Shown: in pieces, positions 11,601 to 38,600 of the stretch
Layout of the letters: the number at the start of each line of letters is the position of its first letter
Numbering within the stretch: position 1 is the stretch's first letter
Origin: Octopus vulgaris
Taxonomy: Eukaryota
NCBI GenBank assembly: GCA_951406725.2
Contig: OX597814.1
Location: forward strand, 49,290,001 to 49,354,000
DNA length: 64,000 bases
Direction of reading: 5' to 3'
Made by a program: the position numbers and the translations under genes
Notes under the pieces: generated by a model
What the model was told of the DNA's origin: nothing
Seen by the model: the letters and a program-made list of their open reading frames with translations, nothing else
Databases searched by the model: none

Positions 11601-14202
11601 CCTTCAGATTTCACTTTTGTTACTTGGACATCAATGTTTTGAAACTGACCTATTTTCCATTACATTTCTGAGTTGTTCAAGCAGAAATATCGTCATAGTA
11701 AATATTCTGCTCAATACCACAGATTTATTTGTCAGTTGATTGACCTTAACCACTTGAAGATGTCCCTTCGTGGCATCTCTGATCATAAGCAGGACTAGTG
11801 GAGGAGTATCGTAGCCATGTGTTGAGAAGGATTTTTGGGGGCTTGAATAAATGTAACAAAAGCAAAGTTTGTCAGAAATATTAGCCATTTGTCATGCTTT
11901 CTAAGGGTAAGCAAATACGAAATATCAGTTGCCACCCTAAGACAAGAATTGATAAAGTGTGGATCAACACACATTGCAATTGTGTAATCTGACAGGAAGA
12001 GGCAATTTTATTTTTCTCATGAAAATACAAAACAAAAGATTTCTAGTTTGCTATATATCGTGTTGTGTGTATTTTTATGCGTGTTTGTGTATAAGTATGG
12101 AATCTCTACGATGAGGGAAAACCATTTGTCAGGACGTATCAGGAACAGATGGTAAAAACTTAACTCCCATTTCTAGTAAAAAAAAAATTATATAAATACT
12201 GAAGTATAAATAAAATGAAATCTGAAATGAAATGCTTCTTCTTTTATGTACATTGTCTAGTGCTGCACTAGTTTTGTTGTTGCATGTTGAAAAACATCCA
12301 AGTAATGTATGTAAACAATGTCAAAAATCTTGTTTATATACAGTATTGTTTTTTTTTTGGTTTTTTAGTGCAGTAAAAGTTGTGGTACTGGAATTCAAAC
12401 AAGGCGGTCTTATTGCTTGGATGACCGAAACAAACGACTTCCTGATACAGAATGTAATATTCAAAATAAAATATCCCAACAAATTTGTAACGACCACCGA
12501 TGTGCAAGCTGGACATTTGGAGATTGGAGTGGCGTAAGTTATCTCCCTTACTCAAATTTATTTTCTCTCTCATTTTTTTCTTTTTTCTCCCTTTGCATTG
12601 CCAAACTGATGGAATCTTGTGTCAGAGAAACTCACAGCCTTATCCTCGCAGTTTGGATTTATCCCCAACTCCAGCTGCTATGATCAACTTATTGAGTTTC
12701 TTGAAGACATCACCTGGGTCACTGATGGCTGCTCATGGATGGATGTTGTTTACCTTGACATTGCTAAAGCTTTTAATTCTGTGCCACACAAAAGACTTAT
12801 GGTAAAACTCTCTGCAACAGGTGTGAAAGATGATCTTTTTTAACTAGTTGGAGTCCTTCATTCTCAGCCATAAAGAGATAGTCATGGTTCTAGAACAGCA
12901 TTCTTCACCCTTATGAGATTTCATTTGGTGTACCACATAGATCTGTTCTTGGTCCCCTTTTGTTTGTTGCATACATTAATGACATAGATGCCAACTTAAA
13001 GAATGCCACAGTGCTGAAATATGCAGATGACACCAAGCTGTACCTTGAGATAAAAAGGACAGATCCTGAACACTATAGATCTTACACTGGCATATGGTGT
13101 AGTGGTTAAGAGTGTGGGCTACTAACCCCAAGATTCCTAGTTCGATTCAAGGCAGTAACTTTTTGTCACTGGAAAAAGTATATATATTTGCAAAGGGAAG
13201 CCTACTTTTCATCGACAACCGTTGATTGTCACACGCTAATGACGGGTCAATACTCAGAAACTCGAGTTCGTGTGTATCATAGGTTGAAGACGGGAAGGAT
13301 GGCTTCCCTTTGCAAATACTAAGGGGGCACAGAAAGTGTGTCAAAAGCTAGCTGGAGGAGGTGTCCTCCTGGGGCTACAAGCTACAGTAGCATCCACCCT
13401 TAGAGGTTAGCCACATTTAAGTGGCAAATATATTTCACGATGTCATGCAGCTACTGTTTATACCTCACTCAGAGATTTATTAAATTTAGTTTTGTTTTGG
13501 TTTCTTATTTACACAATTTTTATGAAAATTTTTTAATACTTCTTTCTCTGAAGCATTCTCTCATCCACTACTCTCAACATTTATGTGCTTTTAATGCTTT
13601 TATATTAGACATTTTCTATGCTTGCTTGATTTGGATAGCTTTTGAATTTTTTGACATATATATAAATTGTTGAATCAGGTAAATGAAATGCCAATATTTC
13701 TTAGATTAAGGCTTAAATTCATAAACTTCCAGATAAGTGATGTTAAATACTCTAACTGCTTATGAATAGTTTAGTTCACTTCTAAAATATATTTATTGTA
13801 TTTTAATATCCTCTCACAAAATGATAAAAACTGGTAAATATGTTTGGTGAAAATGTATTTGATAAATATTTAATTTCTAAAATGATTCTGACTTAATTCT
13901 TTGCTATTCTTTAGTGTACAGCAACATGTGGTTTAGCCAAAAAGCACAGAGATGTCTGGTGTCAGAATGATGTTGACCAGAAGATCCCTGATGAATTTTG
14001 CCATAATGCTCATCGACCAAAGTCTTTCATTGAATGTAACCAAACTGAGTGCCCAGTATGGTCGTATGGTCCATGGAGTGAGGTAAATATTCTATAATAA
14101 AAGTTATATAATGCTCAAGTTTATTTTTGAAAATTTTTTTTCAAAATGTATCATATGCCTTTTCTAAGTTAAAATCCAGTGTCAATGATGAATTTCAGAT
14201 TC

Positions 14203-14248
<46 letters not shown>

Positions 14249-17200
14249 AATTATTGTATACTGTGCTCAGGTGCACCACAACTTGTCAGAAAGTGCGTAT
14301 AAAGTATATGCAGTAATGTACAAATGTCTGGAAAGCGAACAATGTATGAGTCAGATACATGCTTGTGTGTGTATGGAGGGGAGAAAATCAGGTGTAGTGT
14401 TGGCGAATCTCAGAAAGCATGGAAGTTTTGAAGGATGCAGTGCTCCGACAACTAACAACTGATGCCGGCAGTTTGTTCCATGCTTCAGCAACTCTCAGCG
14501 TGAAAAAGTTAGGCCAACCAGAAACATCAAATATCTTGGCAAAGTCAGTGTAATCTGGTGATTTATTTGAAGCAATGTCATTTCAGTATACAAATTGAAG
14601 AGGAATAAAAGCCACTTAATGATGTAAAGTTGAAGAAAAATTAATTATTCTACACTTCAGCTTTAATGATACCTAATCTTATCCTGAAAAATTAAAATAC
14701 AGCTGGGCAGTAATGCAACACTAAAAAACATATGCACATCAATAGGCGCAGGAGTGGCTGTGTGGTAAGTAGCTTTCTTACCAACCACATGGTTCTGGGT
14801 TCAGTCCCACTGCGTGGCATCTTGGGCAAGTGTCTTCTGCTATAGCCTCGACCAAAGCCTTGTGAGTGGATTTGGTAGACGGAAACTGAAAGAAGCCTGT
14901 CGTATATATGTATATATATATATGTGTGTCTGTGTTTGTTCCCCTAGCGTTGCTTGACAACCGATGCTGGTGTGTTTACGTCCCCGTCACTTAGCGGTTC
15001 GGCAAAAAGAGACTGACAGAATAAGTACTGGGCTTACAAAGAATAAGTCCCGGGGTTGATTTGCTCGACTAAAGGCGGTGCTCCAGCACGGCCGCAGTCA
15101 AATGACTGAAACAATTAAAAGAGTAAAAGAGTAAGAGTAATTGCCAACACTTCATTGCATTTGAATATCACAGCCCACATATTCATGCTGTGCATCTATG
15201 TACACCATAACAGTTTTGGTATTATTTACAGCATACTGTTCATTTCAAATTTTTTAGCTTAAGATAAGGGTTTGTTAAAACCAGAATATTGAAAATTTGT
15301 TTTCTACAGCTTTACATGTTTTAGTAATTTCCTGTTTAAATACCTTTAAAGATGGAAGCAATGTTCACACAATCAGTATGTCACTTAAACAATATATTTT
15401 CAAATTCTGAATCCATTTTTCTTAATAGTTTGGTTTTGAAGAAGAGGTTGTGTCCATGGCTTTTTCAGCCCATGTTTTCTTTACAGATAATCCAGTAACA
15501 GAAGTTCAAGCTGAACATCAATTACATCAATTTATCCTGTCAGATAGGGCCTACACAGTCTCTGTTCCTTGCATTATGTAATTGTTGTGTGGACGCCCCC
15601 AGACAATGAAGTAGGCTACATAGATATAGAAGGAGAAGTCTAGACATCAGACTAGTAGCAGAGTAACAGTCGAAGTAGAGAGTCGAGTTGAGTAGAAGGC
15701 ATCCGAACGTGCGACATAACAGTGGCGATGAGGATTTCGTAGCTCATGCAGCCACTGTGTAGTATTGCGATATAACAGTGGTGATGAGGATTTCGTAGTT
15801 CACTCAGCCACTGTGTAGTATTGCGACATAACAATAATGCAGTTGTGTGTATATTTCTTTAATAACAATATAATTGTCTTCTACACATTAATTTTGTTTA
15901 TTTTCAGTGTCCAAAGACTTGTGGCATTAGTTGGAAAAAGAGAGCTGTGCAATGCCATACAGTAAACCATATATTAGTACAAGATGAACTGTGTCCTGTT
16001 CACCAGAAACCAGTTACCATGCAACAGTGTAGAATAACAGAGTGTCGAGCACCAACTACAATTCCCCCTAGAAGCAGCATTAAACAAGAATCTACATTAA
16101 AGTGGAGATTTGGTAGTTGGACAGAGGTAATCTATATTCATTTATTCCCATTTGCAAAATGGTAGTCATTTTTAGAACATGAAATAAGTATCACATCAGA
16201 GACATATTTCCTGCTCACTGATATTGATGAAATGATGTATCTGATTAGGCCTCTGTTTATGGTAGCCACCCAATGCGGAAACCACTGTGAAGTTACTCAA
16301 CCTGCAAGAAATAGCACCCAAATCTCATTCATAACATACCCTGGCAACTTAAAAGAAGATATTGTATTCTTAGACATTAAGGTGGTGAGCTGGCAGAAAC
16401 GTTAGCACACCGGGCGAAATGCATAGCCATATTTCGTCTGCCGTTACGTTCTGAGTTCAAATTCCACCGAGGTCAACTTTGCCTTTCATCCTTTCGGGGT
16501 CGATAAATTAAGTACCAGTTACGCACTGGGGTCGATGTAATCAACTTAATCCGTTTGTCTGTCCTTGTTTGTTCTCTCTTTGTATTCTTAGACATACAAT
16601 GCCTGCTTGGAGCAAACAGTATAACTTTCATTTTTTGCTTTTTCCATTTGTCTCAGACCATTTAACAATAAATTAATAAAGGATATTTAATATTGAATAA
16701 AGATTCTTTAACTGTGTTATATTAAAATAATCATATCCTGGTTGTCTGTGTGCATTTAAATTTGTGCAAACATACTTGTTTGAAAATGTATTTATAAGTT
16801 TTGTTTCTGAGGTTAAATAACTAAACCTGTAAATTTCAGTGTTCTGCCCAGTGTGGTGCTGAAGGTGATCGACAAAGATATGTCAGTTGTACTGATGATC
16901 AAGGAAACACCAGAGAAGATGCTGAGTGTGGCCATCTCACAAAACCTACCACAGTTGAAAGATGTTTATCTAAACCTTGTGGTCAATGGCAAACTGGACA
17001 GTGGGGAAAGGTTTGTTGAGATATTTTGATCATCTTTTCTATTTTGCAATTTCTCATATGATGTGTTAAAATTGGTCGTAAATTGAAATTAAGTTAAATA
17101 ACTGTACAGACTAAGTAGATGAAAATGGTATCTTGAAATGGGAATTTTTTTTACAATATAAGGTTAAAGCGATCTGTTGATCAAATGTATCAAATATTCA

Positions 17201-20200
17201 AAATTGCAATACAGTGGTGTTGCACATTCATTACTTAACCCTTTTGTTACCAACCTGGCTGAAACCGGCTCTGGCTCTGTTGTACAAATCTCTTGCTTTC
17301 ATAAGTTTTGAATTAAAATCTTCCACCAAACTTTAGTCACAATTTATGTTCCGAAAACTAGCTTCATGATAACCAAGTTATTTTATTAAATTCTTTATTA
17401 TATTTTAAGTAATTGGAAGAAGCACAGAGCATCTCACAATACATACAGTAACGAAAGGGTTAATACAGGATTTAGTAATTTAAAAACAAAGAAAAACAAA
17501 CTCTAAAATAAAATAACCTGAACAATATGTAGTGGATGTGTGTGTACGTAAATAAATACATAAACTGTTTCATGATTAAAAAGGGGTTTATTTACATGGG
17601 TTATAAGTACACTACATACAAATGTAAGCAAATGCTACGAATTGCTTGTATAGAACACATATTAAAGATGAATATGTTTGTGTGTGTGCGTGAATCATTC
17701 GGAACAGTAGCCGATAGATACTGTAGGCATTTTTCTGTCGTTTCCAAAACGCGGGGCGAGATAGATCTGTCTGCTGGTGTGTCAGCTGCGATTGTCTTTT
17801 CTTTCTCTGTTTGTCCCTTGTATTTATAATATTTGAAACAGCTAGAAAGATAGACATACTACAACCGAGTTACTACTTAAGTAGGTCAGCGCTTGTCCAG
17901 TTGAACTTCGCCTGACATGGCTGAGGTCGCAGGTCAAAGGGAGATGATCAATCACTTTTTGACAGAACAAAGAGATCCTTAAATTTCGCGCCTATACATG
18001 CATTGGTTTTTGACAACCGATGATTCTTGGATTCAGTTTCGAATCTAGGCTTAGTGTGTGTTTGTAAATAAATACATAAACTGTTTCATGATTAAAAAGG
18101 GATTTATTTACATAGGTTATAAGTACACTACATACAAATGTAAGCAAATCCCTTTTTAATCATGAAACAGTTTATGTATTTATTTACGTACACACACATC
18201 CACTACAAATACATAAGCAGGAAATGCAATAAAATAGCTAAGATAAACTTATATAATCTATTTGGCAGATTCATTAAAACTCTCTTGGCTCTGGTATCAA
18301 ATCTACCTTTTATCCTTTCTCAGCCAATAAAAGGTACCAATCTAGAGCAATGGATTGATGAAACTATTAAGAATATCAGACAGACATCTTATAGTATATC
18401 TTTTGGTTCTTTACATTCTGTGTTCAAGTCCTACCATGGCCTACATGGGTGATAGATTAATGCATCCACTGGTTCAATACCACCACCTAGCCCTTTGAAT
18501 GCTTTTAGCAGAGTTAATTCTATTGCAAACGTTCAGGCCAGGATTCCAGTTTGAGGTTACTTTCCTCCCTCCTACCCATTTTACTGGCCCTGTAAAGGAT
18601 TATGGGCACTGCTTTCTCTCTGGATAATGTATAGCATAGTATTGTACAATATAATATGTGTGTGAGGGGAAGAGGATGTAGAGGAGAAAGAACGAGTGAC
18701 TACAAATAAATACAATGCCATATTGAAAAATTTCCATCTAAGATGTTAGTTTGAAATGGCTTGGTGGATGAGGTTTGGAAAACCAATTTTGGAAGATTCA
18801 AATGAACTGCACTTTTTTCTTTTTCATTTTTTATTGCATCTCTAGGTAATTGTAACTACCTTAATTTATATAACAAGAGGTTATACTAGTGTCTTACTTC
18901 TAGGAATGTAAGCAGTATCCAATCCAAGGAGATTAATCTCTTACTAAATATGGAACTTCAGTTAAGTTATGACTTGACATATTCCTGCAGTTGTATTTTA
19001 TTATTATTAAATCAAAATAGGTTATTCCAAATTTATTTGGTTGTTGCACTCTCAAATTCTATCATTTAACATATTTTCTGTTTATGATTTTTTTATATAA
19101 TAGTTATTCTTGTCATTGAAACACAATACATGACATTGTACTACTTCTATCTTCCAGTGTACTGTTAGCTGTGGAGAAGGTGTACAAACTCGTATAGTTG
19201 CTTGTATACATCTTGATCATCAAGTTGAGGAATTTAAATGTTTCAAAAACTGGAAACCAGTTGCAGTTCAAGCATGCCGACAACGGGAGTGTGAACTTCC
19301 ATCAAGTGATTCTAGCAACTCATCTCATTGGAGAGTTGGCAAATGGAGTGGGGTTAGTATTGTTTCTATGATTCTCACAACTTGCTCCTTTTCAAAAGAG
19401 TCTTGTTTATATTACATGTAATGTTTTACCATTTGTCTTATGATTTAAAATAAACCTTAGTCAACTAAATAGTTTTGGTCCTAACTTTTGTTGTTCCCGG
19501 AATTTATAATTCCATCTATTGATCTGTGCTTCTAAGATACAATTTCCTAGAATCCATTTTCTTTGGTATCTTATCCGTCCATTGTCAACTCAATGCAAAG
19601 CTTTCGGTTTAATAGATGTCGGCATTATTTGAAAAATATAGTTCAAGGGAAGTAACTCTGATTTCCCTGGATTAGCTGCTTGTATAGGTGCAAACTATAG
19701 ACTTTGTAACATTGCGAAATCGAGTAGCTTTTTCTATTTATTTATATTGCTAATGCCCAAAGGAAAATACTTAAATGCTGCAACTCCAGATGTAAATGAA
19801 ATCATTTATGTATGAATACATACGATCGCAAAAGATAAATGACCAAGGCTTCCAAGAGAAATGGCATAACAAGACTACTTTTTGGTTTCAGAGAAGATGG
19901 GTGTGTGCGGGTGGGGGGAATCATCTCAAAATCCAAGGCTCTTCTTAGACTCTCTGGACAATGGACCATTGTACAGGCTAACACTCCCTTTTTCTATACT
20001 ATTTATAAGCCTTGCAAATGACTATTGCTTTTGTGTTCAGGATTAGTATTTGCCATTCTTTTATTCTTAACTGGTAGGAGCATTAACTGACTTTAGATAC
20101 ATTTTGAGAAGCCAGTTCTCTGGTGCCTAGAAAACTGCCTTACCGTATTTGTTCTTTACATTCATTGTTCAAGTCTCACTGCAGTTAACTTGGTTTTTCA

Positions 20201-22931
20201 TCTCTCTGGGGTTGTTAAAATAATAAAAGTACTGTATGTGAAGGCTCTCTCTCTCCCGCTCTCTCTTTTTTCTCTCCACCTATCCATCCATTAACTCTAC
20301 ATCTGTATGCTTTCAAATTTCTATTTTAGTGCTCCAGTACCTGTGGTTCAGGTTGGCAGCGTAGAAGAGTTGCCTGTAACTTTGAAGACCAAAGCCGTTG
20401 TAATATTTTACGGAGACCCATTGAGAGGAAACCTTGCAACAGTGGCTATTGTCCTGGATGGACATATGGAGACTGGAATGAGGTAACTTTTTTACGGTTT
20501 TATATTTCTAACAGCTTTGCTCGTATTGTCCTATTTATAGTGAGGATAGTGGTAAGAAGTTCACTTCACAATTATGAGGTTTCAGGTTCAGTCCCATTCC
20601 ATGGCACCTTGAGGAAGTGTATTCCACTGCAACACTGGGGCTACCAGTACCTTGTTCTTGTTTGTGAATTTGATAGAGAGAAACTATGTGAATAGCCAGT
20701 GTGTGTGTGTGTGTGTGTGTGTGTCTTCTCCCATCCATCCCACTTGACAATCAGTATCAGTTGGTTTGTATACCTGTAATTTTGTAGTTTCACAAGACAA
20801 ACCAATAGAATAAATACCAGACTTACAAAACTAATTACTGGAGCCAATTTTTCAATGAAGCCTTTTCAAAGTGGTGCTCCAGCACAGCTACAAGCCAGTC
20901 ACTGAAACAGATGAAAGAATAAAAGACATTGTACAGAAGGTCATCCGACGTGGCCGTTGCCGATGCCACCTTGACTGTCTTCTGTGCCGGTGGCACGTAA
21001 AAAGCACCAATCGATCATGTCCGCTGCCAGCCTCCCCTGGCACCTGTGACGGTGGCACATAAAAAGCACCCACTACACACACAGAGTGGTTGGCATTAGG
21101 AAGGGCATCCAGCTATAGAAACACTATCTGATCAGACTGGAGCCTGGTGCAGCCTCTTGGCTTCCCAGACCCCAGTCAAACCGTTCAACCCGTGCTAGCA
21201 CGGAAAACGGACATTAAACAATGATGATGATGATGAAAATTTCTTCAGTGAGTTCAATTCACTATATTATTTGTACTTATTTTATCAGTAAAATGATGAA
21301 TGACAAATCCAACTGTGGTAAGCTTTTTAACTTTAACTCAAGAGGACAAAAACTAAATACCAAAAAATTATTTAAATGAATAGTCTTCTCTGTTGATCAT
21401 TCTTACTTATCTTGTTTTAGTGAATATTGATTTTGTTTGTACTTTACACAAGATTCAAGTTGATAGGTGACAGAAAATAAGGAATCATTAGGTGAAAGTG
21501 AAGTTACGTAACATTTACAAGAAATTGAAACCAGACCTCTACTTTTATTCATTGGAAATGTATCTCTTATTCTACATTATTCATTATAATTTTATTTATA
21601 AAATTGCACAAGATTAATTACAAAGTTCAAGAAGCAGGGTTAATTAGAAGAAAACTACTATATAACATAACTAGCTCTTTCTTTCATAAAAAGAACTGAA
21701 TGGAATTAATAATAAAGAGTATTTTGTTATATTTTATATTTTCTTTTAAATGTTTCTAACATGTATATGATTGGTATGCATATATGTACCTGTGTATAAG
21801 TATGTGTTTGAGAATCAATATGCATACATGTGACCCAGGTTTAATTCAATATAGATGACTGTATGTACCTGTATTATTGTCAGTATGTTTTACAAAAAAA
21901 ATTTGACCTAAGTAAACTTATTTCATACTCAAACTAAAGCAAAGTTTCTTCTGAATATTTTTTCTTTAAATTCTAGTGTCCAGTAACTTGTGATTCAAAT
22001 GCGTATCAGAAAAGAACAGTATTGTGTCAACTTCCAAATGGTCAAATGTTGCCAGACCCAAATTGTAACCTATACCAAAAACCTGCTGAAACAAGGCCCT
22101 GCCTTTCAACTTGCAATGAAGTATATGTATGGAATGTTGGAGCATGGGGTCCTGTGAGTAATCACAAATAAAAAAAAAAGAATTATATTTATTTTTCTAA
22201 ATTCTATTTTTGTTTTGCCATCACATCAGTTACTGTTCTTGAAAACAAATAGATCTGTTCACCTTTTGTTTTTGAATTTTTAACACTCAGTACAGAATTT
22301 CTCTCTCATAACTTTTTACTCACAACTTTAAGTGACTACAGTGTTCTGCAGAGACTGACTATAAACCTTGCTGCAATAACTTGGTGAAAATAACAACCAA
22401 ATCTCTCCAACTATATTACTGTTGCATAATATAGTCATGAAAACATTATATCTGAATAAGATGGGATAGTCATGGTCATTAATTATAAGTCTGCTCGATT
22501 AAATTTGTTTTGTGGGTAAACAACAGTTGATACAATACTTCTTGTATTTGTGGATTGTTGGTAGGGAGCAGACCTGTAAAAAATATTGTCTATGCTTATA
22601 TGAAAGTGTGACTGTAAGACAGCGCGATGTGGAAATAATAAGTATTGTTAATTAACAATAAATGCCTGGTGAAGCTAATTAGAGACACAGTTTCAATTCT
22701 TAACTGAAACATTTCTCTTTTATATTGTTACTAACACCCATTTCCTCTTCCTTGTAACTCTTCCTTTCATGCCTGCTGGAAATGGTACAGAAAATCTACA
22801 GTGTTTTGAGAAGCCAATATTGGCGAAACTTCAAATTCACCATTGATAATAAATATTATTTTGACTCTACAAGCAGTATTGAGTCCTTTATTCAGAGCAT
22901 GTTTAGTGTACTGAAGTACACAAACCTATAA

Positions 22932-22984
<53 letters not shown>

Positions 22985-23003
22985 GTATATATGTATGTAT
23001 ATA

Positions 23004-23058
<55 letters not shown>

Positions 23059-23074
23059 GTATTTATGTATGTAG

Positions 23075-23131
<57 letters not shown>

Positions 23132-26100
23132 TGTTTTGTGTTATACTTGTGTGTGTGTACATATATTAGTTTCAAATTTTAGCACAATGCTAGCAATTTC
23201 AAAGGAGTGGGTAAGTCAATTACATCAAGCCTAGAGCTCAACTGGTGCTTATTTTGTCAACCCTGAAAGGATGAAAGGCAATGTCAACCTCGGCGGAATT
23301 TGTGCTCAGAACGTAAAGACAGACAAAATGCTGCTAAGCATTTCACCTGACATACTAAAAATTCTGCCAGCTCGCCACCTTTGTGTGTACATACATTATC
23401 TGCAGAGTACCATCATTAAACTGTACCCTGTTAAGCCAGGTTCAGAGAGTGACTGTCCTTATTGACTTTCATTACCATTTTTGGGAATCAGTATCATGTG
23501 GTCCAACAATCTTCATTGATTATTCAGTGATTAGGCATTTTTTTGCTTTGTATTTTATATCATGACTCCAAAAGAGATTAATTTAAAGAAGCGGGCAACC
23601 CCAGTTGTGAAGCAAAAGTTGGAACTATATAAAGAAGTTAGAGGCTGGTGCTTTTTTACATTTACACACAGAAATGTTGAATAATTTTATAGAATGTATA
23701 TCATTGTTTTATGTAGTTATATAATATATAAAATATTTTTGTAATTTTGTTACTGTGTGATATTCAGCATGCAATGCATCTATTTCTTATTTTGTATGCA
23801 TACACAATATTAAACTTTATCATTGGTTAACTCAAGTAATTAGCTAAAGCTGATACCCTTCCCTGCATTAGTATGTTTTAGTAAAGATGCACAGTGTATG
23901 TACGTGCATGCATGTGTGTGTGTGTGTGTGTGCGTATCAAGCTCAGTTCAATTATCTCCATTCTATTTCTATTGTTCAGATACTTGAATCCTTTCACCAG
24001 TCCTTTCCACCTGTCTCACTCTTAGATCTTCTGTGGCTTAAGTAGTCCAGTATAGAATTAAATATAGGCATAACTTACATTCAGATGTTTCATTGATCTT
24101 GGTAATTCTGGTGGTTCTCACCCCTTTCCCAGGATATTGATGCAGTTGGCTTGAAAGTTACTCATCCACCTTTGACAGACGTTTCTTAATCATGCAAAGA
24201 GCCCACATACCATCCTTACTGGGTTAATCCAGTAGGGGGCAAGCTTAGTAGTCTACCACTTATATATATAAAAGAACAAAACGTTTTTGATAGAATATTA
24301 GTCAGAAGTTACATTTATGTTTTGTTTTGCAAGATTCCTGATGTGAAACCATCTTGTTGAAACAGATATTGTTATATTTTGGGATGGTCATTTAAAAATT
24401 TTTTTTTTTTTTTTTGCCAAATAACCATACACCTTGTATACTCGTTCTTCACTTCAGCTTTAATATTGTTCATATTTTTGTGCTCTTTTTCTGAAATCTT
24501 TCATCACACATCTTGTGACCTCTTCAGTGTCTCTCCATCCTATGTGTCTCCTCCTGCCAGGTCAAGAGGAGACGTGAGGGCTGGAAAATCATCGAAGAGG
24601 TCACAGTATGTATGATGAAAGATTTCAGACAAAGAAAATAAGAACAACAATAAAGCTGAACTGAAGAATGAGTATATAATATATGTGTTTATTTGGCAAA
24701 AGAAAAGAAAAAATTACCATCCTAAGATATGACAATATTAGTCATAAGAAATGAAGGAATTATTCCTTAATTTAATTATATATTTACAGGTATAGAAAGT
24801 CTTCAAATTTTCCAAGGAAATCAAATGAAATGAAGTGAAAAAGAAACTTAAATATAATAGAATAAAATATTTAAATTATTGCATTTAAGAATTTGCCTAA
24901 CATTTAAGAATTCTTGTTTACATATCATCATCATCATCATCATCATCATCACCATTATCATTTAACATCCATTTTTCATGCTTGCATAGGTTGGATGATT
25001 CAACAGGAGCTGTGGGGTCACCAAGTAACTTGTAAGGCAGAGACCTCTCAGCTGAGAGAGGGAATGGAACTGAGGGAAGTGGCTATGAGCCAGGTGAGAA
25101 GTGAGAGTATAATAGAGGGAATACTCAGCTACTACAGTAGGACAGGGACAGACAGGAAGAGGAGAGAGAGTTAGAGAAAGAGAGAGAGAGAGAGACAGAA
25201 TGGGAGACAGGAAAATTGGTGTTGCAGATGTATTTAGGTTTATCTACAGGGAACAGTGGTGGGAGTATAAGTAGTATAAAGGGCGTAGAGAGGGATGTTG
25301 CATAAGAGTGTGAGGGGAGATGTTTAAAGATGGAGAAGACTTGGCTCTTTGAGTGATGGTGAGAGAGTAGGTGGGAGCGGGTGTATAGTAGATATGTAAG
25401 AGTATGGAGAGAGTGTGGATAGGCACATGAGGGAGAGTGGAAAGGCCTGCAGTGGGTGATAATCATGGATAGTGGGATGTGAGGGATGTTGGGAAGATGG
25501 CTTGTAGGGGTGTTTTGTCAGAGGACAGATTATTTGTGTGTGAGAGTAGAGGCATGGCTATAAAGGACATGCTTGTATGTATGGATGATCATGATTTTAC
25601 TTAGCTCAATGTGTCTTCTCAAGCACAGCAGATCACCAGAGATCTTAGTTCTTTGTCATCTCCTCTCTGAGGTTCAACATCTGAAGATCATTTCTCACCA
25701 CTTTGTTCCAAGTCTTCCTGGATCTACCCCTTCCACAGATTTCCTCCACAATTAGAGATTGGTACTACTTAATACAACTGTCCTCATCCATATGCATCAC
25801 ATGACCATGCCAGCACAGTCTTCTCTCTTGCACACATCTGATGCTCTTATAGTAAATTATTCTCTTAAATCATTTACACTGTCGTACATGCACACTGACA
25901 TTATCTATTCAGTGGAACATGTTGGCTACATTTCTTTCAGGCCTTTGCAAGTCCTTTGCAGTCACAGTCCATGTTTCACTGCCATGTAGCATAACTGTTC
26001 ATATGCAGGGATCATACAATCTGCCCTTCACTCTGAAGGAGATGTCCTTTGTTACCAACAGAGGTAGTAGCTCACTGAACTTTGCCCAGCCCATTCTAGC

Positions 26101-29100
26101 AACAACACTTTCAGAACATACTCCTTCACTGCTAGCTTAGTTACCTAAGTATCAGAAGCTATCTACTACTTCTAAGGATACCCCTGGACATTTGAGGAAG
26201 TTTATTTTCTGTACATTCTTAGTGTTTATTGTGCCTGCACATCTGCCATACACAGACTTCTTTGTACTTTCACCTTTTCTACATATTGAGCAGGACCATC
26301 TCCCTGAAGGGATTAGTAATTTGTCTGTTTTCCTACTTACTAGGACTTTGATCTTTGCTAAATTAACTTTTGCTGTGGCACAAGAATTCTCGTGTGCTCA
26401 ACAAATTCTTAAATGTAATGACATAAATATTTTATTTTATTATATTTCTGGTTTTTGTTTTCACTTTATTTAATTCCATTTCATTTCATTTCCATGGAAA
26501 ATTTGATGATTTTCTGTACCTTGTATTTTTATAAATAAACTTAGAAACAATTCTTTTATTTCTTCTGACTAACCTTGTTATTATTTCAATTATATGTATT
26601 CTACCAAGGTCGACTTCGCCTTTCATCCTTTCAGGGTTGATTAAATATAAGTTGCAGTTATGCACTGGCGTCAATGTAATTGAATTAATCCCTTCCCCCA
26701 AATTTGGTGCCTTGTGCTTTCAGTAGAAAGTATTATTACAATTATGTATAAATTAAGATGCACAACAAGTAACCAGTATTTAGAACTTCATGTGTATCTT
26801 TATTTGCTATAAGAGAAAACTGTGAAGAGAATTCATGTATTTTCATCAAACATTCCCTCTACTAGTTTCCATAGTTACAAAGATAATTGAGTATACAGAG
26901 AAAAAAATCAAGACTGGAGAATAGATCCTGAAATTATTTCCTTAAGTCATTCTTATATGTGTTTCAGTGAAGATTATAAGGCTGAATTGTACAATCATGG
27001 TCAGGTGTATTTCTTATATCTTTGCATTATTATAAGAGCTTATTTCAGAATGTGTTATTGTGAGTTGTCTTTTCTTCAAATAACAGAAAAAGTTACAAAG
27101 AATGTTTATTACAAGAGAAATTAAATGGCATGACTGAAGGTAGTGTAAAGAAATTTTAGGTTCAATTACTCTGGAATCAAACTAGACTAAACATAATTAT
27201 ATCTACACTGAGTTTCATTTGTATGTTGATGATAAATTCATAACAGTCTGACAGAGCAAATCTCACTGACTTAGATTTTCTGTCCATATATATATTATGC
27301 TAACATACATTTATAAGCATATACACTCTCACAAGTTATACAGACACTTATATAATACAAGTACAAAGAAATACATATACACATATATATTTATTAAGAT
27401 ATACACTCATAACCTACATAGATACACACATGCATGCATGCATACATACTCACATGTACACACATACACAAATGCATATACATACATATATCTTCTGCAT
27501 TCAATGCTCATGTTTGATTTCCATGTATTATATTATAGTGTACATGGAAGTGAAACATGGGTATTGAATGTGGAGAATGTGTGAAGGCTAGAATGAAATA
27601 TGAGATGAGCATGCTCTGCTTCAAGTGTAATGTTAGTTTGAATGATGGATGAAGCCAAAATGAGCTGAGAGAAAGAAGACTACACTGGTACAGACAAGTT
27701 GTATGCATGGGGAGATGACATTTGGGTAAAGAAATGCCAAGTGAACCAAGGATCCTGCAGCAGAAGAAGACTGAATAAAACATGAAAGCTGGGTTCAAAT
27801 TGCTGAACCTCGTGAAGACAACAAAGACCTACAACAAATGGTGAGATGCTGTGCTGGAAAAGACCTGTCCAACCTCTGGACACATAGAAAACTGGATGCA
27901 AAATGATGAGGATATATGCATGGGCATGTGTATGTATATATATGTGTATATATATCACAAATGCACAAGATATATTAAACTTTACGTTGTAAATATTTTT
28001 AGTGTCCGGCTAGTTGCGGTAAATCTCGCAAATACCGTAAAGTTCGATGCATCAATAAAGATAATATTGAAGTTGACTTATCAAAATGTCCTGGCAAACC
28101 ACTTCGATCCAGTAAACGGTGTCGAGTAAAGAAATGTCCTCACTGGTACAAAGGTCCTTGGAGGCCAGTAAGTATTTTATTTGCAATTAAAATAAATCCT
28201 TGACAGTTAATCATTTTGTTTTTGTTTTGTTTTTTTTGTTACAAAAAGAAATGGCATAAACTCCATTTTTTCTTCAGTACACACAAAGCATATTGACTGT
28301 GAGGTTAAGATGCTGTACTGCTAACCATTCAGAATAAATTCATATCTTACTGCTGCTGTTATGTTGTGACCTTGGGCAAAGCATATATTTCTGCTAAATC
28401 TTATTTGCTTGATGGACAAAATAAATTTAATTCGCTCTCTCTTAATCTAAGAATAGCCAGTCATAGAAAGAGATTCTGGCTGTTGAAATAATTACTCCAG
28501 TGAAAAAAACAATTCCATTCATTTTGATTGTACAAATGGATGTAAAACTGTAAGAGTATATGAATCAAAAGTTTATCAAAAGTTTTCTTAATATCAACAA
28601 ATAAATGGTTATATTCTTAAAAATCTCTTGTAAATAAGCTACACCCCTAATATTATTATTGCATATAAAGTTGTTTTTCTGAGATTGTTACACTATACTG
28701 TATATCATTAGTAGCTGACTATTGAGGTCTCTGATAATAGTAAAAGCAGTGTCAGAGTAAAACAAATAGAAATATATAACAAGTAGAAATGAAGAAACTA
28801 AAATATACTATTTGTAATTACAATGGCTGGTTGTTACTTTCTTCAATTCCTAGTGCTCTGTTGAATGTGGTAATGGTACAAGAACAAGAGAAGTTACTTG
28901 CAAACAATCTAAATATAAAACAATACCTGATGTATATTGTAACAAGAAAAAGAAACCTATAAGTGCGAAAAGTTGCTATCCAGCACCCTGTAAATATATA
29001 TGGAAAAAAGAGAGGTGGTCATTGGTAAGCAGGTTATATTTTTTAATTTCCTTTTTCTGAATTGGACACATAAAGGGACTTTGCATGCATACAGACACAC

Positions 29101-29622
29101 AGACTCACAAATAATATTAATTGGCATAGCTTTTTAAGCAGTTCAATTTAAAATATAAATTTGACATCCTTTTTAATGGTAATCAAATGTTATATCACTT
29201 ACTAAACTGGTAAGTTGTTATCTCATATTATACATTATCTCACCATTAAACTTCTCATCATTACACTATGAATTATCTCTATTAGTTATCTTATTCTACA
29301 AAAAAAAAATAAGACGCGTGACCGATAAATCAATATAATGCTGTGTTTCTTGAACTGTCAAACTCAACTTGTTAATTGTTTTATGATACTTGACCTCCCC
29401 TCACATGTCTATCTGCACATTCTCTATGCCCTCACTTATCTACCATCCTTACACCCCCCCATCCACTTCAATTTCTCTCACCATCACTTGTTACAGTCAT
29501 GTCTTCCCCATCTCAAGACATCTCTACTCACATTCGAATGGAACATCTCCCTCTATCCCCTCTGTACTATTTATACTACCCACCTCCTTGTAGGTAAACT
29601 TCAATACATCTCCAATACCATC

Positions 29623-29678
<56 letters not shown>

Positions 29679-32600
29679 CCTCTCTCTCTCCCTCCCTCTC
29701 TCTCTCCCTCTCTCTCTCTCTCTCTGTCCTTCCTCCCCTTCTTTGTCCTACTGAAGTGTCCAAGTATCTTCTCAATAGTAAGACTACTATCTTTGTCCTG
29801 CCATTATCCTCTAACTTCTCGCTTAGCGCATGTCCACTTCCCTCAGTTCTACTCCCTCTGTCAGCTGAGAGGTCTTTGTCTTGCAAGCTTCTTTGTGACC
29901 CCACTGGTGCTGGTGCCACATAAAAAAGCACCTGTGCTGGCACCATGTAAAAAGCACATGTATTTGTGCCACTTAAAAAGCACCCAGTACACTCTATAAA
30001 GTGGTTGATGTTAGGAAGGATATCCAACTGTAAAAACTAAGCTAAGATTGACAATTGGAGCTTGGTGTAGCTCTCCAGCTTGCCACCTACTGTCTAACCC
30101 ATACCAGTATAGAAAATGGGCATTAAATGAAGAGATTATAGAGGCTCTTTAACATTACATGTTATATGATGATGGTGAGTCACATAACCCATTGGGTTAC
30201 AGGGATATCTTTGAAGTTCTTTTCTTCATGTAAGTTATAGCAAGTCAGCCTAGCAGAACCCTCCACTTTCCTAACCATTTGAAACTCTCAGTAAGTCAGC
30301 ACTGAAATGACATCAGTTTTACCTTGCATTCACTGATTAAATTTGCTAAGTTGTTTCTACTTAGCCATTTTAGACTGAGCCATTTTAGAATTGACCCTGC
30401 CATGGACACAAAATAGTGCCAGAGACAGTGTGAATCTTCAGCTACTTGTTTAATGTCCCATTTTCTTTGCCTTGTCAATAAATTATATCATTTTATAAGT
30501 AATTTATTACATATTTACAAATATATAGAAGTAATTATATCAAGTGTAGCATGCTGACTTTGTGTGTTTAATCCATTCTTTTTCACTGTAGGGTTAGACA
30601 ACCAAAGTAATCAGACATACTCAACACTAACAATAAAATAATGGTAATAATCATAGGCTGTACCAGTCTAGGAATAATAGATTACACTGTGTAACATGAT
30701 TTTTGTCCTTGGGTAGCAACTGTTATTTCCTATTTGCTTACTTCTACAAAGTATGAAAAATGGTTAATATTTCCTTCAAATTTTGCTTTTGTTACATTTA
30801 TTCAAACCCCAAATAATCCCTCTCAACACATGGGTATAATGTTCCCCATTACTCCTGCTCATGATCAGAGATGCACATATTGTTAGCCACTAAGGGACAT
30901 GATCAAGAGATTAAGGTTAAGCAATTGACAAACAAATCTATGGTATTGAGCAGAATATTTGCTATCATGATATTTATTCTTCAGCAAATCAGTGCTGAAT
31001 CTGTCTGAAATGTAATGGAAAATAGGTCTGTTTCAAATAGGTCTGTCACAAAAGCAAAGTTTGAAGGGAATAGTAGTCATTTCCTTTGATTTCTAGATAG
31101 AAGCAAATAGGAAATAACACTTACTGACCTAAGACAAAAAAAAATTAGAATTTTGTTACACAATGTTATTGCTTTATTTTTACTTGCAGTGTTCTAAAAC
31201 CTGTGGATTTGGACAGAAACAGCGAGCTGTAAATTGCATGGATTATGAAAATAAATCTTTAGCTGAGGATAAGTTTTGTTTATTCAAGAAGCCTAAAACC
31301 CATAGAAGATGTGCTGAGTTCCCTTGTCCTTTACAATGGACCACAGGCCCTTGGACTGACGTAGGTTTTAATTATTTTTTTCTTTACTAATTATGAATTT
31401 AAAACATCAGATTTGAGTTGTAGTAATTTTTGCTTTTTCCATTCAATTTCTAAATGTATATTGGATGTAAGTGCTTTGACTAGGTGATTGGTTCTCAGTA
31501 GCATAGCTTTTGGTCATAGAAACTGAGAATAAAGCAGAAAATTTTGATGTAAGATGGATGAAGCATGCAAAAATGATTGCAAAAATGTAGGATAGATGTC
31601 TCTATAGATGAGGTTAGTGATGAAGATTAATGAGGTTCTTTTTTCTATCAGTTGTTGTCAGCATTCTGTTTAGACCATTGGTGCATAGTTTAAGCAGTGG
31701 TGATGATTTAGTGGTTTTAAACATTTTAATTCAAATGGATGTTATGGGCATCAGCTTTGAAATTGAATTGTAAATGTGAAAACTTTGAAACATTATTTTT
31801 ATTTTTTTTACATTGCAAAAAGGCCGTAAATCTTAGAGGATTGGTCCATTTTATCACACCCACTACTTGAATATTACTTATTTTATTGACCCTGGAAGGA
31901 CTAAAGATATAATTGATTCTGATAATATTTTAAATCAGAATGTATGGGGATAAAATGTTGTACCAAAAGATATTTGGTCCCAGTCTCTACAGATCCTATC
32001 TTTGACCACTAATTAATTTTGTATCCTAAAGCACTTTTACTGATTCCCATTAAAAAGATATCTCTTTCAACTTTTACTGAATTATTATATGTCATTAGAT
32101 CAGATAATTTGATTTGTTTTTTTAAATTTATTTACTCACTACCTTTAACTAAAAAGTATTGCATTATATTAGAGGGTTTCAAAACACCATATTAACATGG
32201 CCCTCTTGAAGAATACACCAAGTCTATCTCTTAAGTACATAGTTACTTTCACTACTTTCATTTTTATTATAAAACAATTCAGTTAGTGCTACTTTTTTTT
32301 AGAACTAAATGTCTACCTCATCACATGTGTTTAAATGTTTCTTTCTTTTTCCTTTTCCTCCACTACCATCATTCAGTGTTCAGCAACCTGTGGCCTTGGG
32401 TGGCAATCACGATCAGTGGTTTGTAATTCTTTCTCTAAAGAAAACTGGATACTTGGTGAATCACAGTCATGTAAGAACGCAGAAAAGCCTCCTTCTCAGC
32501 GTTATTGTAACTATGGTGACTGTGATGGATATTTCTTCTGGAAGGTTTTTTCTTGGCAGCAAGTAAGTATTAAACTTAATATTATACTGTATCAATTTGT

Positions 32601-35600
32601 TTACATTAAATATAAAGGTGGATATCAGTAGTAATTGCATTTCTGTACAGTAGAATATATTCTATATATTTTTTGCTAACACTGTGTGTACAGACAGCTG
32701 TAAACACTTTGTCTTTATATATAACTAGCAGTATCGGCCGGTGTTGCTCGGGTTTGTAAGGGAAATAACTATATAAGCATTTTTAGAGAGTTATAGCCAA
32801 AAATTAGCGAAAAAATGCATTAAAAATGGGGAAAAAATTATGGTAAATTTTTTTTTAAATCGTTGACTCATCGTAGACATTTTTAGAGAGTTACTTCCCT
32901 TCTATAATAGCGAAAAAAATGCATTAAAATGGAAAAAAATGATGGTAAATTTTTTTTTAATCGTAGACTCATCGTAGACATGTGCTAATACCCAGAAGGG
33001 CTCGATATGAATCACGACTATAAGATACTCAGTTTTGGTTAAACTGCACCGCAAAATGTGGTAGTAGTTAGGAATCTAAATCGTAGGAGACAGACACACA
33101 ACTTCACTTTTATATATAAAGATATCTTTGTGCTCAGAGAAAGTGGGATCTACTAGATTAGTTTTTATCCTTACTCTTTTACTTGTTTCAGTCATTTGAC
33201 TGTAGCCATGCTGGAGCACCGCCTTTAGTTGAGCAAATCGACCCCAGGACTTATTCTTTGTAAGCTTAGTACTTATTCTATCGGTCGCTTTTGCCGAACC
33301 GCTAAGTTACGGTGACGAAAACACACCAGCATCGGTTGTCAAGCGATGTTGGGGGGACAAACAGACACACAAACATATACACACACACATATATATATAC
33401 ATATATACGACAGGCTTCTTTCAGTTTCCATCTACCAAATCGACTAACAAGGCTTTGGTCAACCCAAGGCTATAGTAGAGGACACTTTCCCAAGGTGCCA
33501 CGCAATGGGACTGAACCTGGAACCATGTGGTTGGTAAACAAGCTACTTACCACACAGCCACTCCTACGCCTTAGTTGGAATTTTATCAGTGACTGAGTAC
33601 CTTTTAAAAGTCCACAAAGACACTGATTATAAACACACTATTACTAAAGACTTAAATAGATGTATAGGCCAATTTGCATTATGTAACATGTTCTAGAAAG
33701 TTAATAAAAGATTCTTTAAATTCTCTACCTTTTTTTTTTTTGGAGAATTTTACTCAGTGTTACAATGCTATTTACATCCTTATTACAAATGTTCTTTATT
33801 TTCCTAACCTATCCAGTGTTAACTTAGTTTTGTGTTATTTTTCTTAATAGTGTCCTGACGCTTGTGGAATCCAGGAGGTTAACAGGAGAGTGACCTGCAT
33901 TGATAAAGCTGGCCGAGAATATCCTTCCTCAAACTGTAAAGATACCGCTCCAGTATCAAAACGAATATGTCCCAATAAAAGATGTAAATTGAATTTTCAT
34001 TTTAATTCTAATTCACCTTTTATCTAATTTAAATTTATTGAGACTATAATCAAGATAAACAAATTTTTATCAGTATTTCAACTTGCCTTTATATTTAGGA
34101 TTTATGCTGAATAGTTGCCAATGAAATCGCTGTTACTGTCATATAAATATTAGTTTCAAATTTTGGCACAACGCCAGCCATTTCAAAAGAGTGGATAAGT
34201 TGATGATATCAACTCCAGTGCTCAACTGGTACTTATTTTATTGATCATGAAAGGGATGAAAGATAAAGTTGACCTCAGGAGAATTTGAACTCAAAGTGTT
34301 AAAATAGACAAAATGCCGCTAAGCATTTTGGCCAGTGTACTAATGATTCTGCCAATATTTATACTATCGCATAAATATTGACAGTAGCTGTTACAAATTT
34401 AAATAATGAAACTGCTAATGATGATAGAGAAGAGGATGACTACGAACATGACAATAATGTTGTTTCATTTCAACAACAGTAATGATTACAATAACATCAG
34501 CAAATACTTTTGATACTCGCTCCTTTTCTCAACTCTCTTGCAAAATAAACTTTCTCTTGAGTTAATGTTACCACTCTAGTATATCATATTCAATTTGCTC
34601 TTATTTAATTACTATAGAACAATGCCTGCTTATTAAACAAACACTGGGTCAATAGTTAAAAGTGCATATAGTAATAGTATAATAAGGAAGATTTAAGTGC
34701 ACTGGACTTCTTAGAAGAGATTCAGTATGCCTTAAGTAAGTAGCCACAGTACTGTATCAGGATGCATATCAGTACACAGTTTTGCAGGTTTTTCTAACAT
34801 TTATGAAGATGCAAATGCAAAACAGCTTGATACTAATGATTGTAATGGACAGAGTAGATGTTGGAGATGGGAAAATTTATGACATATGTCTTATTTGCCT
34901 AAGTCCTTTCATGGACACAATTCACAAAAATTAGCATTCTGTTGAGGGGGAGAAATGTTTCCCAAATGCATAAAATGTTGAAAACTGACTAAAAAAAATA
35001 AGTTTTTTTAAATAGATATAATTCTGTAATCCATGTAAAAATGTGTCAAAATTTAAGGTGACTTTTTTTATAAATTTTCAAACATTTTTCCCTAATGATT
35101 TTTTCCAAATTCTAATTGGTTAAAATTGTTGTTTTCTCCTACATTTAAATATTTAGGTTTTGTTTCTTCATGCCAAGAATTAAGAGATTCAACATCCATT
35201 AGGCAAGATAGCACCTACCGACTACTTATCAGAGGAAAACTTGTCCCGGTAAATTGTTTTTGAACATTTCAATTTGTTGCTTGCATAAGTCATCTCTTAG
35301 CTCTCTCTTAAACTTTTCTTAATTCTGTCAAGTTCACAGCTTCTGGGAGTCTTTTAGCTTCTGCTAAAGTCAGTGCCAATATGTTAAAAAAAAAAAACAA
35401 TGATCTTTTATCTTTAATCTTTTTCTTTTTTTTTCAGTCATTAGCTTGTGGCCATGCTGGGGCACTGCCTTGAAGAATTCTTAGTCGAATGTATCAACCC
35501 CAGTCCTTATTATCTTTTTAAGCCTAGTATTTATTCTGTCAGTCTCTGTTGTCAAACCACTAAGTTGTGGGGATGTAAACACACCAACACCAGTTGTCAA

Positions 35601-38600
35601 GCAGTGGGGAGGAACAAACACAGACACACATATATATATATATATACTCCTGGAATGGTTGGCATTAGGAAGGGCATCCAGCTGTAGAAACCATGCCAAA
35701 TCAGATTGGAACCGGTGCAACTCCCCAGCTTACCAGTTTTCAGTCAAACCAGCCAACCCATGCCAGCATGGACAATGGACATTAAATGATGATGATGATG
35801 ATATGCATATATCCACTAACAAGGCTTTGGTTGGCCCAAAGCTATAGTAGAAGACACCTGCGCAGGGTGTCATGCAGTGGGACTGAATCCAGAACCATGT
35901 GGTTGGGAAGCAAGTTTCTTACCACACAGCCATGCAACATATAGCAATGCTCTGTGAAAATTTGTCCCAAAACTTGAGACTTCTTCTAATGACTAAATTT
36001 GTGTGGTCATAATTATAGAGTTTCAGGTTTAGACTTAAAGATTAACTTTTTATTCTTCACTTTCCACATAACTTGTAACAAAAAATATTTTGATTTCTAC
36101 AATATCTCTTGCAAATAAAAAATATTTTCAAAAACTGTATTTTTTAGTATGTTAAGGTAAAAGTTATCTATGATGTGAAGGAGGAAAAGACGGAAGCAGA
36201 GAGAAAATTACAGTAGTCTTACTTGTCTATCTGGAAAGGTTACTCACAACATCCATGTGCTCTATCTATGTGGATGGGGTTGCTCACAATCTCCACGTGC
36301 TCTGTCTGCCACCGTACCGTCTAATAGGTCTGCTTTCATACGCTGTCCACTGCCAACTGACTACTCGTGCCTCGCCGACCCCGCATGCCCACCATGGCCC
36401 TTCCAGTGGGACCACTTCTGACAGGACATGCATGCTCCCTCACTTCCGGTCCTTCCCCACAACACAGCCTGACTCATAACACCACAACTTTTAAATTTTA
36501 TTTTGCATCACATAAGAATGTATCATTGCATTTGACACATTGAGCAAATTTTTTATTTGAAAACTCCACTTCTTAAATAATGAAAAATTATAAGCACAAA
36601 AAAAAATATATTGTTTCCTTGAAGAAACTTCAACAGTAATCAAATAGAAAGCAAGACATTAAAAATTCAATATATGGATAAAATTTCATTCCATTTTTTA
36701 CAAAAACCTTAAGATATCTGAAATCCATACTTAGCTTTAATTTATTTTACAGAGAAAATTAACTACAAACTTTTATAATAATCAAGATATTTTAATAATC
36801 TAACATACCATGGTAAATTTTTCATCCTCTTACTAAATAGTATTACTTTTATTTTACATCTAGATATACTGCAATAAAATGAAAAAGAATCCTGTTGAAT
36901 ACATTACTCTACAATCTCCTGAAGAAAACTTCTCAGAAATCTATGAAAAACGGTAAGTTTGTTGTCAGAAAGAAGTTGTAGAATTCTGTAATTGTTTAGT
37001 GATGAAAACATTGATATAATGACTAGGTGCAACCTATAGATCTTATTTCTAGATATACCATGCCCCTGCTTAGCTGAGGACCATACTGTACATTCCAACA
37101 CACAATGGTTAATCATGCATAGTGCAGTGAGACACTCTGGACATGTATCTCCACTACCTTGCCTACTTCTATCCACCTATAAATTCTGATAATAGTTATA
37201 ATAGTTGTGGCTAGAGTGCAGGTTGAGATGGTCTCAATCCAAATTTGACAAATGCTGACCCCACTGTTCTTATCATTGGTACTTATTGTGAACTTACACA
37301 TGCATAGTTTTAATTTTGAGAGATACCAAATTATCTGAGATTATGTCTTGCAATTGACTGGTCATTTATCCAGTGAGGGGATTTATCTGATATTTGCTTT
37401 ATACCATGAATATTTAGAGCTTATTATAGTTTTTCAACCCGGATCCCTGATTGAGCAGACATATGATCTCATCATTGTTCGGATTGTGCAAGGACTACAT
37501 TATTCAGTATGTTCTTAAGATAGTAGGGTTTGATTTGAGAGAGATTTAACTGCTCTTTGTAGTAGATTGAGTGCTTGTGTAGAGGCTTCCTCATTGGTTT
37601 ATGATAAAAGGTTGAGTATTGATAAATAAATAGAAAATAGGGATGTGAGTCACTATTTTATCTATTGTGCTATTATGTAGATAACAGCCTATGTTTACCT
37701 AACTGAGAAGCTTAAGAGAGTTTGGTGATAAAAAGGAGATTCAGTTGGGGAAAAAAATTCCACTCCAAGCAAACACATATTAACAAAGAGAAATTATTTT
37801 CTTGATTAAACTAAATAACATTCATAATGGCTTCTGCTTTAGGTATGAGGTTAGCAATTTTAAGGGAAATAGATTAGTTGATACTGTCCATGCCAGTGCT
37901 AACTTGATGCTTTATTTTTTTGATCTCAGAGAGATGAAAGGCAAAAGTGACTTGGACAGAATTTGAACTCAGGAAAAATACAAACAAGGCATTTTCACTA
38001 ACGATTCTTCCAGTTTATCACCTTATAATGCAAATAGTTTCAAGATATGTTGATGTACTCAAGGTTTCTAGTGTAATTTTGTAGGGATTTTTTTGTATCA
38101 AAAGTAACATTCTAGATTTGGAGTAAAGATTATTTGCCAACATAACATGGCAATCCTGGTTTAGGACAAATGTTGCTGTAATTTAGCCCCAGGAGACATC
38201 GTCTCTAGCCAGCTATACGACACAATCTGTATTCTTATATTTTCAAACAAGAGAATCTAGCACCACCACCCAACCAGCTCAAAACAAAATCGGTGTATCG
38301 CGATTTCCAGGTTATTTCCCTTCATCAGCACAGAATAATTGTTCGGCTAGAGGCAGCGCCACCTCTAGCCAAACAATTATTCTGTACTGATGAAGAGAAA
38401 TAACCCAGAAATCACGATACATGGATATTGTTTTGAGCTGAGTGGGGGTGCTAGATTCCCGTGTTCGAAAATATAAGGACACAGACTGTGTCGTATAGCC
38501 AGCTGGAGACGATGTTGTCTGGGCTAAATTACAGCAACATTCATCCTAAACCAGGACTGCCACGTTATGTTGGCAAATAATCTTTACTCCAAAGTACTGT

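Follow-up and report, generated by a model that had tools for sequence, protein, structure and literature searches.

What moves a short repeat that encodes no protein and carries a hammerhead ribozyme? The question is raised by a 64,000-nucleotide (nt) stretch of the Octopus vulgaris genome (contig OX597814.1, positions 49,290,001 to 49,354,000; hereafter the window), in which two dissimilar repeat units each contain a hammerhead motif. Judged from their sequences, each unit is an old copy of a different lineage, A or B, of one non-coding monomer. We think it probable that this monomer is a non-autonomous retrozyme lacking long terminal repeats (non-LTR), whose RNA would cut itself as a dimer, become a circle and be copied by a reverse transcriptase (RT) and GIY-YIG nuclease supplied by a Penelope-like element.

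Penelope-like helpers were proposed for metazoan non-LTR retrozymes by Cervera and de la Pena 2020 (PMC7229834), and vertebrate non-LTR retrozymes have been argued to be derivatives of Penelope-like elements (Li, Clavereau and Pollet 2026, 10.64898/2026.07.22.740005). Penelope-like elements carry a tail, usually at one end only (Craig et al. 2021, 10.1101/2021.04.23.441226). Here and below, statements about these three sources and about PMC6765202 refer to the accessible parts of each.

Two lineages of one non-coding monomer

We found that the two units in the window belong to one family. The majority sequence of lineage A is 355 nt long with a GC content of 0.45, and that of lineage B is 350 nt with a GC content of 0.40. 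In the flanks of 30 loci per lineage, the sequence 5' of the hammerhead was the unit's own downstream end. The two majorities aligned over their full length (local score 139, compared to at most 44 in 1000 shuffles) and were 61% identical globally; blastn alone gave no link between A and B. The original prediction had recognized two homologous subfamilies from their downstream parts. The homology is real and, based on the full-length alignment, wider than was thought.

The monomer has the length (~170-400 nt, in head-to-tail repeats), lack of coding capacity and GC content below 50% that characterize non-LTR retrozymes. The longest ATG-initiated open reading frame (ORF) was at most 51 amino acids in four majorities. 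No primer-binding site or polypurine tract was seen by eye in the majorities (no dedicated search was made), and there were no poly(A) tails or terminal inverted repeats at the flanks of the loci examined.

The family is large. A hairpin shared by the lineages had 5003 exact matches in the 2.8-Gb genome and the reversed pattern had none; that is, there are at least 5,003 genomic matches to the family. A first look had given 3570 and 2156 candidates for the two window units, with 40 scored for each. Exact matches to the hammerhead pattern (581) and to the B core (226) compare to zero for each reversed control, indicating that the motif did not arise by chance. Identity to the corresponding majority had a median of 94-95% (41 B and 42 A loci) and was 98-99% in younger subfamilies of lineage A, values that lean young because best-matching copies were selected. 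At 12/30 B loci and 5/30 A loci, pieces exceeded one monomer in length. Lineage B sits on a long branch, with no firm placement in the trees; one tree of motif loci contained two spurious rows.

Sequence of lineage B (query L030:1550-1899) was also matched in runs X10, X16 and X19, which are labelled as three other organisms, and the family may therefore predate their split. Contigs from runs guessed to be RNA span the cut-site junction, as do those from DNA-sized runs, with the same uneven depth profile.

A type I hammerhead with a palindromic helix III

The family majorities contain an intact type I motif, CUGAUGA/GAAA/UH, in agreement with the consensus expected at the outset (CUGANGA/GAAA/UH). 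Helix I has 6 base pairs (bp), a bulge and a 4-bp extension; helix II has 4 bp and a 6-nt loop; helix III has 2 bp closed by a palindromic tetraloop. These are the helix sizes of the canonical layout of animal type I hammerheads (PMC4209133). In its predicted layout, the hammerhead of the unit is canonical type I. The original prediction of a type I hammerhead with a palindromic helix III was supported, and its assignment to the minimal form found in Penelope-like elements was not.

We placed this structure on 30 real copies and found that 90% of the cells were paired; the palindrome, scored as four pairs, was 92.5% paired. The covariation score was 0.51, compared to 0.18 or less when the structure was slid, and none of 500 shuffles reached it, although related sequences can beat this shuffle test. 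Five of the six pairs of helix I differ between A and B on both sides with pairing kept, and the compensatory changes proposed for this stem thus hold up. The stem II difference that had been proposed, GGGU/ACUC versus GGG/CCY, fared less well: helix II does pair in the family, but ACUC and CCY are decayed forms of CCC.

Further subfamilies emerged when loci were searched by pattern and sampled on the hairpin. Across the family, helix III is one of four perfectly self-complementary octamers (ACTCGAGT, ATCGCGAT, ACTGCAGT and ACTATAGT) or the wobble form ACTCGGGT, extending the 8-nt palindrome that had been predicted from the window. Among 125 countable motifs, ACTCGAGT occurred 34 times, ACTCGGGT 23 times, ATCGCGAT 16 times plus CpG-decay forms, ACTGCAGT 5 times and ACTATAGT 3 times; these counts are biased, in that some loci were chosen on helix III and about two to four motifs are spurious. 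For the ACTGCAGT and ACTATAGT octamers, the loci had been selected by the downstream hairpin. Core pair C3-G8 was present in 116 of the 125, and one subfamily covaries to U3-A8. A standard pair closing helix II (G10.1-C11.1 or another) is absent in A and B, and A-U and G-C are present there in younger subfamilies.

A monomer needs only the outer two pairs of helix III. The inner four letters are nonetheless kept self-complementary, which points to dimers. Folding was consistent with this: the minimum free energy structure of the dimer was a double hammerhead in four of five majorities, and that of the monomer was an inactive fold in all five. Cleavage as a dimer, through the 8-nt palindrome, is likely from these models.

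Three other loci (L136, L137 and L138, at ~3400-3600) have hammerhead-like motifs with a ATCGCGAT helix III and unrelated flanks. None had a Penelope-like ORF within 3.5 kb. They may represent further retrozyme families.

Probable selection on the fold of the whole monomer

As a circle, the monomer is predicted to be highly self-paired (z of -5.3 to -9.4 in five majorities), like the circles of other retrozymes. In the predicted fold, long-range pairing encloses the hammerhead by joining one end of the monomer to the other. When the circular folds were cross-scored, there were 19 pair-keeping double changes for the fold of A on B and 24 for that of B on A. Pairs changed on both sides were enriched in these comparisons (p of 0.0002 or less) and between majorities D and B (p of 0.0008 or less). 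These double changes between lineages support selection for RNA shape outside the hammerhead as well; we are less sure of individual helices in the modelled folds. Together with the insertion footprint described below, the ORF, covariation and fold tests support the original idea of a non-coding, Penelope-linked hammerhead retrozyme family with a selected fold. Neither of the two sequence-based outcomes named beforehand as refuting that idea, a consensus lacking the motif and an absence of covariation among copies, was observed.

Insertions have two fixed ends

We analyzed 99 insertions (104 loci minus five duplicates). In 58 of them, two arms in inverted orientation point outward. The arms end at either of two fixed sites, one ~173 nt ('short') and one ~220 nt ('long') past the cut site and ~45-50 nt apart, with one site per arm. 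That is, 44 insertions were short plus long, one was short plus short, none was long plus long, and 13 had one unclassed end; 44 of 45 classable inverted insertions thus had one end of each kind (p of 1e-12). Of the 41 single-orientation copies, 40 end at the short (22) or the long (18) site. Contigs from two large runs have loose ends at the short site as well. Partial tandems, an inverted 5'-truncated arm and a tail at one end are the insertion features of Penelope-like elements, and the unit has all three.

In young insertions at five loci (L079, L132, L134, L196 and L200), private, locus-specific changes were common to both arms and to successive rounds. This fits copying of one RNA species, round and round, from two sites. 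At L196, the last direct round lacks a change at position 349 that the upstream direct round has in common with the inverted arm; the template may have been mixed, or an error in copying may have been handed from one arm to the other.

The two lineages differ in their targets. Lineage A contacts (TA)n in 37/61 insertions, compared to 1/38 for lineage B (2/38 with a wider window). In contrast, 15/38 B insertions have target duplications of at least 8 bp, compared to 0.4 expected by chance; the B duplications are 8-15 bp, in keeping with the duplications longer than 4 bp that retrozymes have when they have any. Lineage B also has duplications of at least 8 bp at 6 of 15 hairpin-chosen loci, one of which repeats an earlier locus.

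Penelope-like elements in the same genome

The genome has two young, intact families with RT and GIY-YIG domains, encoding proteins of 781 and 775 amino acids, each with its own, different hammerhead. Among 38 ends listed for the 781-aa family, 10 were at cut+73 and 9 at cut+113, and 17 continued into the ORF. Among 29 for the 775-aa family, 11 were at ~cut+143 and 16 at cut+169 to 189. Both families share the two-ended footprint of the unit: they end in (TA)n, and the inverted pairs seen (L156-L158; L222/L223, L225/L226, L232/L243, L238/L239 and L125) had one of each end.

The 775-aa family (L216-L245, e.g. L125:4805-4845) is very young, with at least 150 near-identical matches; its hammerhead has the core CCGAAGA, with C at position 4, and AGTACT as helix III. 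A DNA search with its AT-rich 3' end found nothing, and a protein search was used instead. The 781-aa family (L121-L124) has an additional frame upstream, open for up to 479 codons and with no Pfam match, and a hammerhead with U3-A8 and an ACATGT palindrome.

An autonomous RT plus GIY-YIG partner sharing the unit had been anticipated. We found no such ORF framed by the unit among the loci examined. Penelope-like protein matches were present at 3/104 loci, in each case separated from the unit by a (TA)n run or by hundreds of bases. At L087, a retrozyme and the Penelope-like fragment beside it proved to be two insertions in one (TA)n run. We found no homology between the unit and the two intact Penelope-like families. 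In sequence and organization, the unit is most probably a non-LTR retrozyme and not the terminal repeat of a Penelope-like element.

Alternative explanations

The unit could belong to a further autonomous Penelope-like element as its solo pseudo-long terminal repeat (pLTR), with copies that are 5'-truncated insertions of that element. The matching footprint would be explained directly, 24 of 57 frog retrozyme families match known elements, 21 of 22 of them Penelope-like (10.64898/2026.07.22.740005), and our sample was the best 150 of 6136 Penelope-like candidates. We consider this improbable, however. The unit's downstream end precedes the hammerhead and closes a ring of 350 nt with no exit into an ORF, the few protein matches are separated from the unit, and blastn found no match to the sampled pLTRs. 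Movement of a SINE- or MITE-like repeat (short interspersed element; miniature inverted-repeat transposable element) by a LINE (long interspersed element) or a DNA transposase, the hammerhead being a mere vestige, is very improbable. Duplications of 8-15 bp are compatible with LINE-type priming and a tRNA-like SINE head adjoins copy A, but that junction has one match in the genome, poly(A) tails and terminal inverted repeats are missing, the tail is one-sided and arms are inverted, and the hammerhead covaries in young subfamilies.

It is also unlikely, in our estimate, that the template is a linear, uncut multimer, with a hammerhead that is slow or trims ends and with tandems derived from tandem source loci. 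Insertions that cross the cut site are equally allowed by such a template, the 10.1-11.1 pair is non-canonical, and 8 of 9 frog retrozyme dimers were uncut in vitro (10.64898/2026.07.22.740005). Against it, private changes recur in each round and in both arms, long-range pairing links the monomer ends around the hammerhead, and the coral, mussel and axolotl units form circles (PMC7229834).

Several results weigh against a self-cutting retrozyme with a selected fold and a Penelope-like helper. Position 10.1-11.1 is C.A in lineage A and A.G or A.A in lineage B and was unpaired in 24 of 30 aligned copies, which may slow cleavage. Most of the hammerhead covariation stems from one deep split, that between A and B. 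The original prediction looked to Rfam for a hammerhead; the scan of the window gave 53 matches (E-values up to 10), none of them a hammerhead, and the ribozyme call therefore rests on motif, folding and covariation. For the whole fold, a stricter letter-redraw control gave p of 0.07, below 0.0002, 0.28 and 0.05 in four comparisons, weak in two (0.07 and 0.28); the enrichment between A and D was marginal (p of 0.14 and 0.05); and independent folds of A, B and D had only 29 of ~112 predicted pairs in common. Locus L075 had no private change common to both arms. Lastly, the unit had no match by blastn (word size 7) to the pLTRs of 31 Penelope-like loci, a small sample, and the helper is for this reason proposed from the footprint and not named.

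A proposed cycle

A circular RNA copied by a Penelope-like enzyme remains the reading that we favor. A tandem or read-through copy would be transcribed. Two hammerheads would then join through the 8-nt palindrome and cut, as folding and covariation predict, and the monomer would be ligated into a structured circle, as with other retrozymes. A helper enzyme would cut the target, and both DNA ends would prime on the same RNA species at the two fixed sites. Copying would pass the cut site for up to three rounds, giving the 5'-truncated tandems and inverted arms observed in the DNA. Selection would act on the RNA of source elements, and inserted copies, such as those in the window, would decay. 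Lineage B may use a different helper.

A more tentative idea, possible but doubtful, is that RNA shape, and not a sequence in common with the helper, is the mobilization signal: the branched fold would offer the two priming sites to Penelope-type reverse transcriptases, and fold and sites alike would have been kept in lineages 40% apart while the helper was switched. The helper of lineage A would then be a (TA)n-cutting nuclease and that of lineage B a duplication-forming one.

Comparison with known systems

The unit has the testable features of non-LTR retrozymes, a class already described (PMC7229834; 10.64898/2026.07.22.740005). It resembles the metazoan elements (PMC7229834) in its 170-400 nt non-coding tandem monomer, type I hammerhead, GC content below 50%, duplications longer than 4 bp and self-paired circular fold. 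Mussel units, compared by description, are similar in size (350-390 bp), and in HHR_Amex2 of axolotl, too, helix III is 2 bp long and closed by a tetraloop, and helix II has a mismatch at its base. Unlike in that account, the octopus family is mostly dispersed, in insertions that comprise 1 to 3.5 units, include an inverted arm and have two fixed ends; the coral, mussel and axolotl units make circles, whereas circular RNA and cleavage are predictions for the present unit.

As with vertebrate retrozymes, intact Penelope-like elements, whose enzymes are the proposed helpers, co-occur in the genome (10.64898/2026.07.22.740005). The vertebrate case is built on co-occurrence and pLTR homology and sampled no mollusc; here, in contrast, the link is through insertion ends and target choice, and no pLTR homology was found in the loci sampled. 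Penelope-like elements (10.1101/2021.04.23.441226) share with the unit a palindromic helix III for dimers, the U3-A8 core variant, partial tandems, an inverted 5'-truncated arm and a bias for microsatellites. Their tail is 30-40 bp, compared to 43-52 nt in the unit, and unlike them the unit has no ORF and has a canonical instead of a minimal hammerhead. The Sm-alpha SINE-like repeats of Schistosoma (PMC6765202) are also short and non-coding with a type I hammerhead, but have a promoter-bearing tRNA-like head that the octopus family lacks.

No account of retrozymes in cephalopods, or of a two-ended footprint in retrozymes, came to light in our literature searches, although such accounts may exist in supplements or subscription papers. 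The words ribozyme, hammerhead and retrozyme do not occur in the main text of an octopus repeat annotation paper.

The copies in the window and their surroundings

Copies in the window are 91-95% like their majorities (Table 1), and the hammerhead motifs lie where they had first been placed, including the arm C cut. Copy A is ~95% identical to the lineage A majority. Its G5 reads A and its C17 reads U, and its hammerhead is likely inactive. Arm C has an intact palindrome and that of arm B is broken. By folding, the dimers predicted from these copies are damaged, arm C excepted. The 'mirror copy' first described next to arm B is indeed inverted; it is not separate, since both arms make up a single insertion (38121-38648) between two 10-bp duplication copies.

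Both insertions are intronic in an ADAMTS/GON-1-like gene, with copy A and arm B in the sense orientation. The SINE head abuts copy A directly. A SINE-hammerhead chimera was considered as a family and rejected, as the junction was found once in the genome. ARAGORN found no tRNA in the window.

Table 1. Coordinates of retrozyme copies and neighboring features in the window
Feature	Position	Strand	Remarks
Lineage A copy (copy A)	13153..13482	+	locus L031; 5'-truncated; monomer positions 240-355 then 1-214 from cut site; terminates at long end
Copy A type I hammerhead	13223..13279	+	extended stem I, core, stem II and palindromic helix III; cut expected after 13268
Copy A stem I	13230-13235 / 13269-13274	+
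Copy A core	13236-13242	+	G5 reads A
Copy A stem II	13243-13256	+
Copy A GAAA	13257-13260	+
Copy A helix III	13260-13267	+	ACTCGAGT
Copy A position 17	13268	+	U; C in the family
Copy A downstream hairpins, conserved	13302..13430	+	includes CCAGCTGGAG...CTCCTGGGGCT hairpin common to all lineages
Target-site duplication, left copy	38111..38120	+	10 bp
Lineage B insertion, inverted arm (arm C)	38121..38352	-	terminates at short end, ~173-175 past cut site
Arm C hammerhead	38285..38343	-	helix III ATCGCGAT intact; core at 38328; predicted cut after 38296
Lineage B insertion, direct arm (arm B)	38349..38648	+	terminates at long end, ~226 past cut site
Arm B hammerhead, decayed	38372..38433	+	helix III ATCACGAT, stem changes; core at 38387; predicted cut after 38419
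Target-site duplication, right copy	38649..38658	+	10 bp
ADAMTS/GON-1-like gene exons	12369-12530, 13914-14084, 20330-20485, 38826-38963	+	TSP1_ADAMTS and GON domains
LINE-type RT fragment, decayed	~12600-13080		upstream of SINE head; by eye
tRNA-like SINE head	13085-13152	+	abuts copy A
DDE_1 (pogo/Tigger-like) transposase fragments, decayed	40040-41700	-

Implications

Two questions are open in the literature: the identity of the enzyme that moves animal retrozymes, and the way in which inverted arms and a tail on one side arise in Penelope-like elements (10.1101/2021.04.23.441226; PMC7229834; 10.64898/2026.07.22.740005). With a short template whose priming sites are mapped, young copies that are nearly identical, and two intact families in the genome as candidate helpers, the octopus family makes both questions testable in vitro. 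Its helix III palindromes form a natural series whose covariation is evidence for cleavage by double hammerheads. If RNA shape were indeed the mobilization signal, the family would provide a minimal substrate of 350 nt for the two-ended insertion reaction of Penelope-like elements, which is still unsolved, and would be a viroid-like RNA that evolves by structure in an animal genome.

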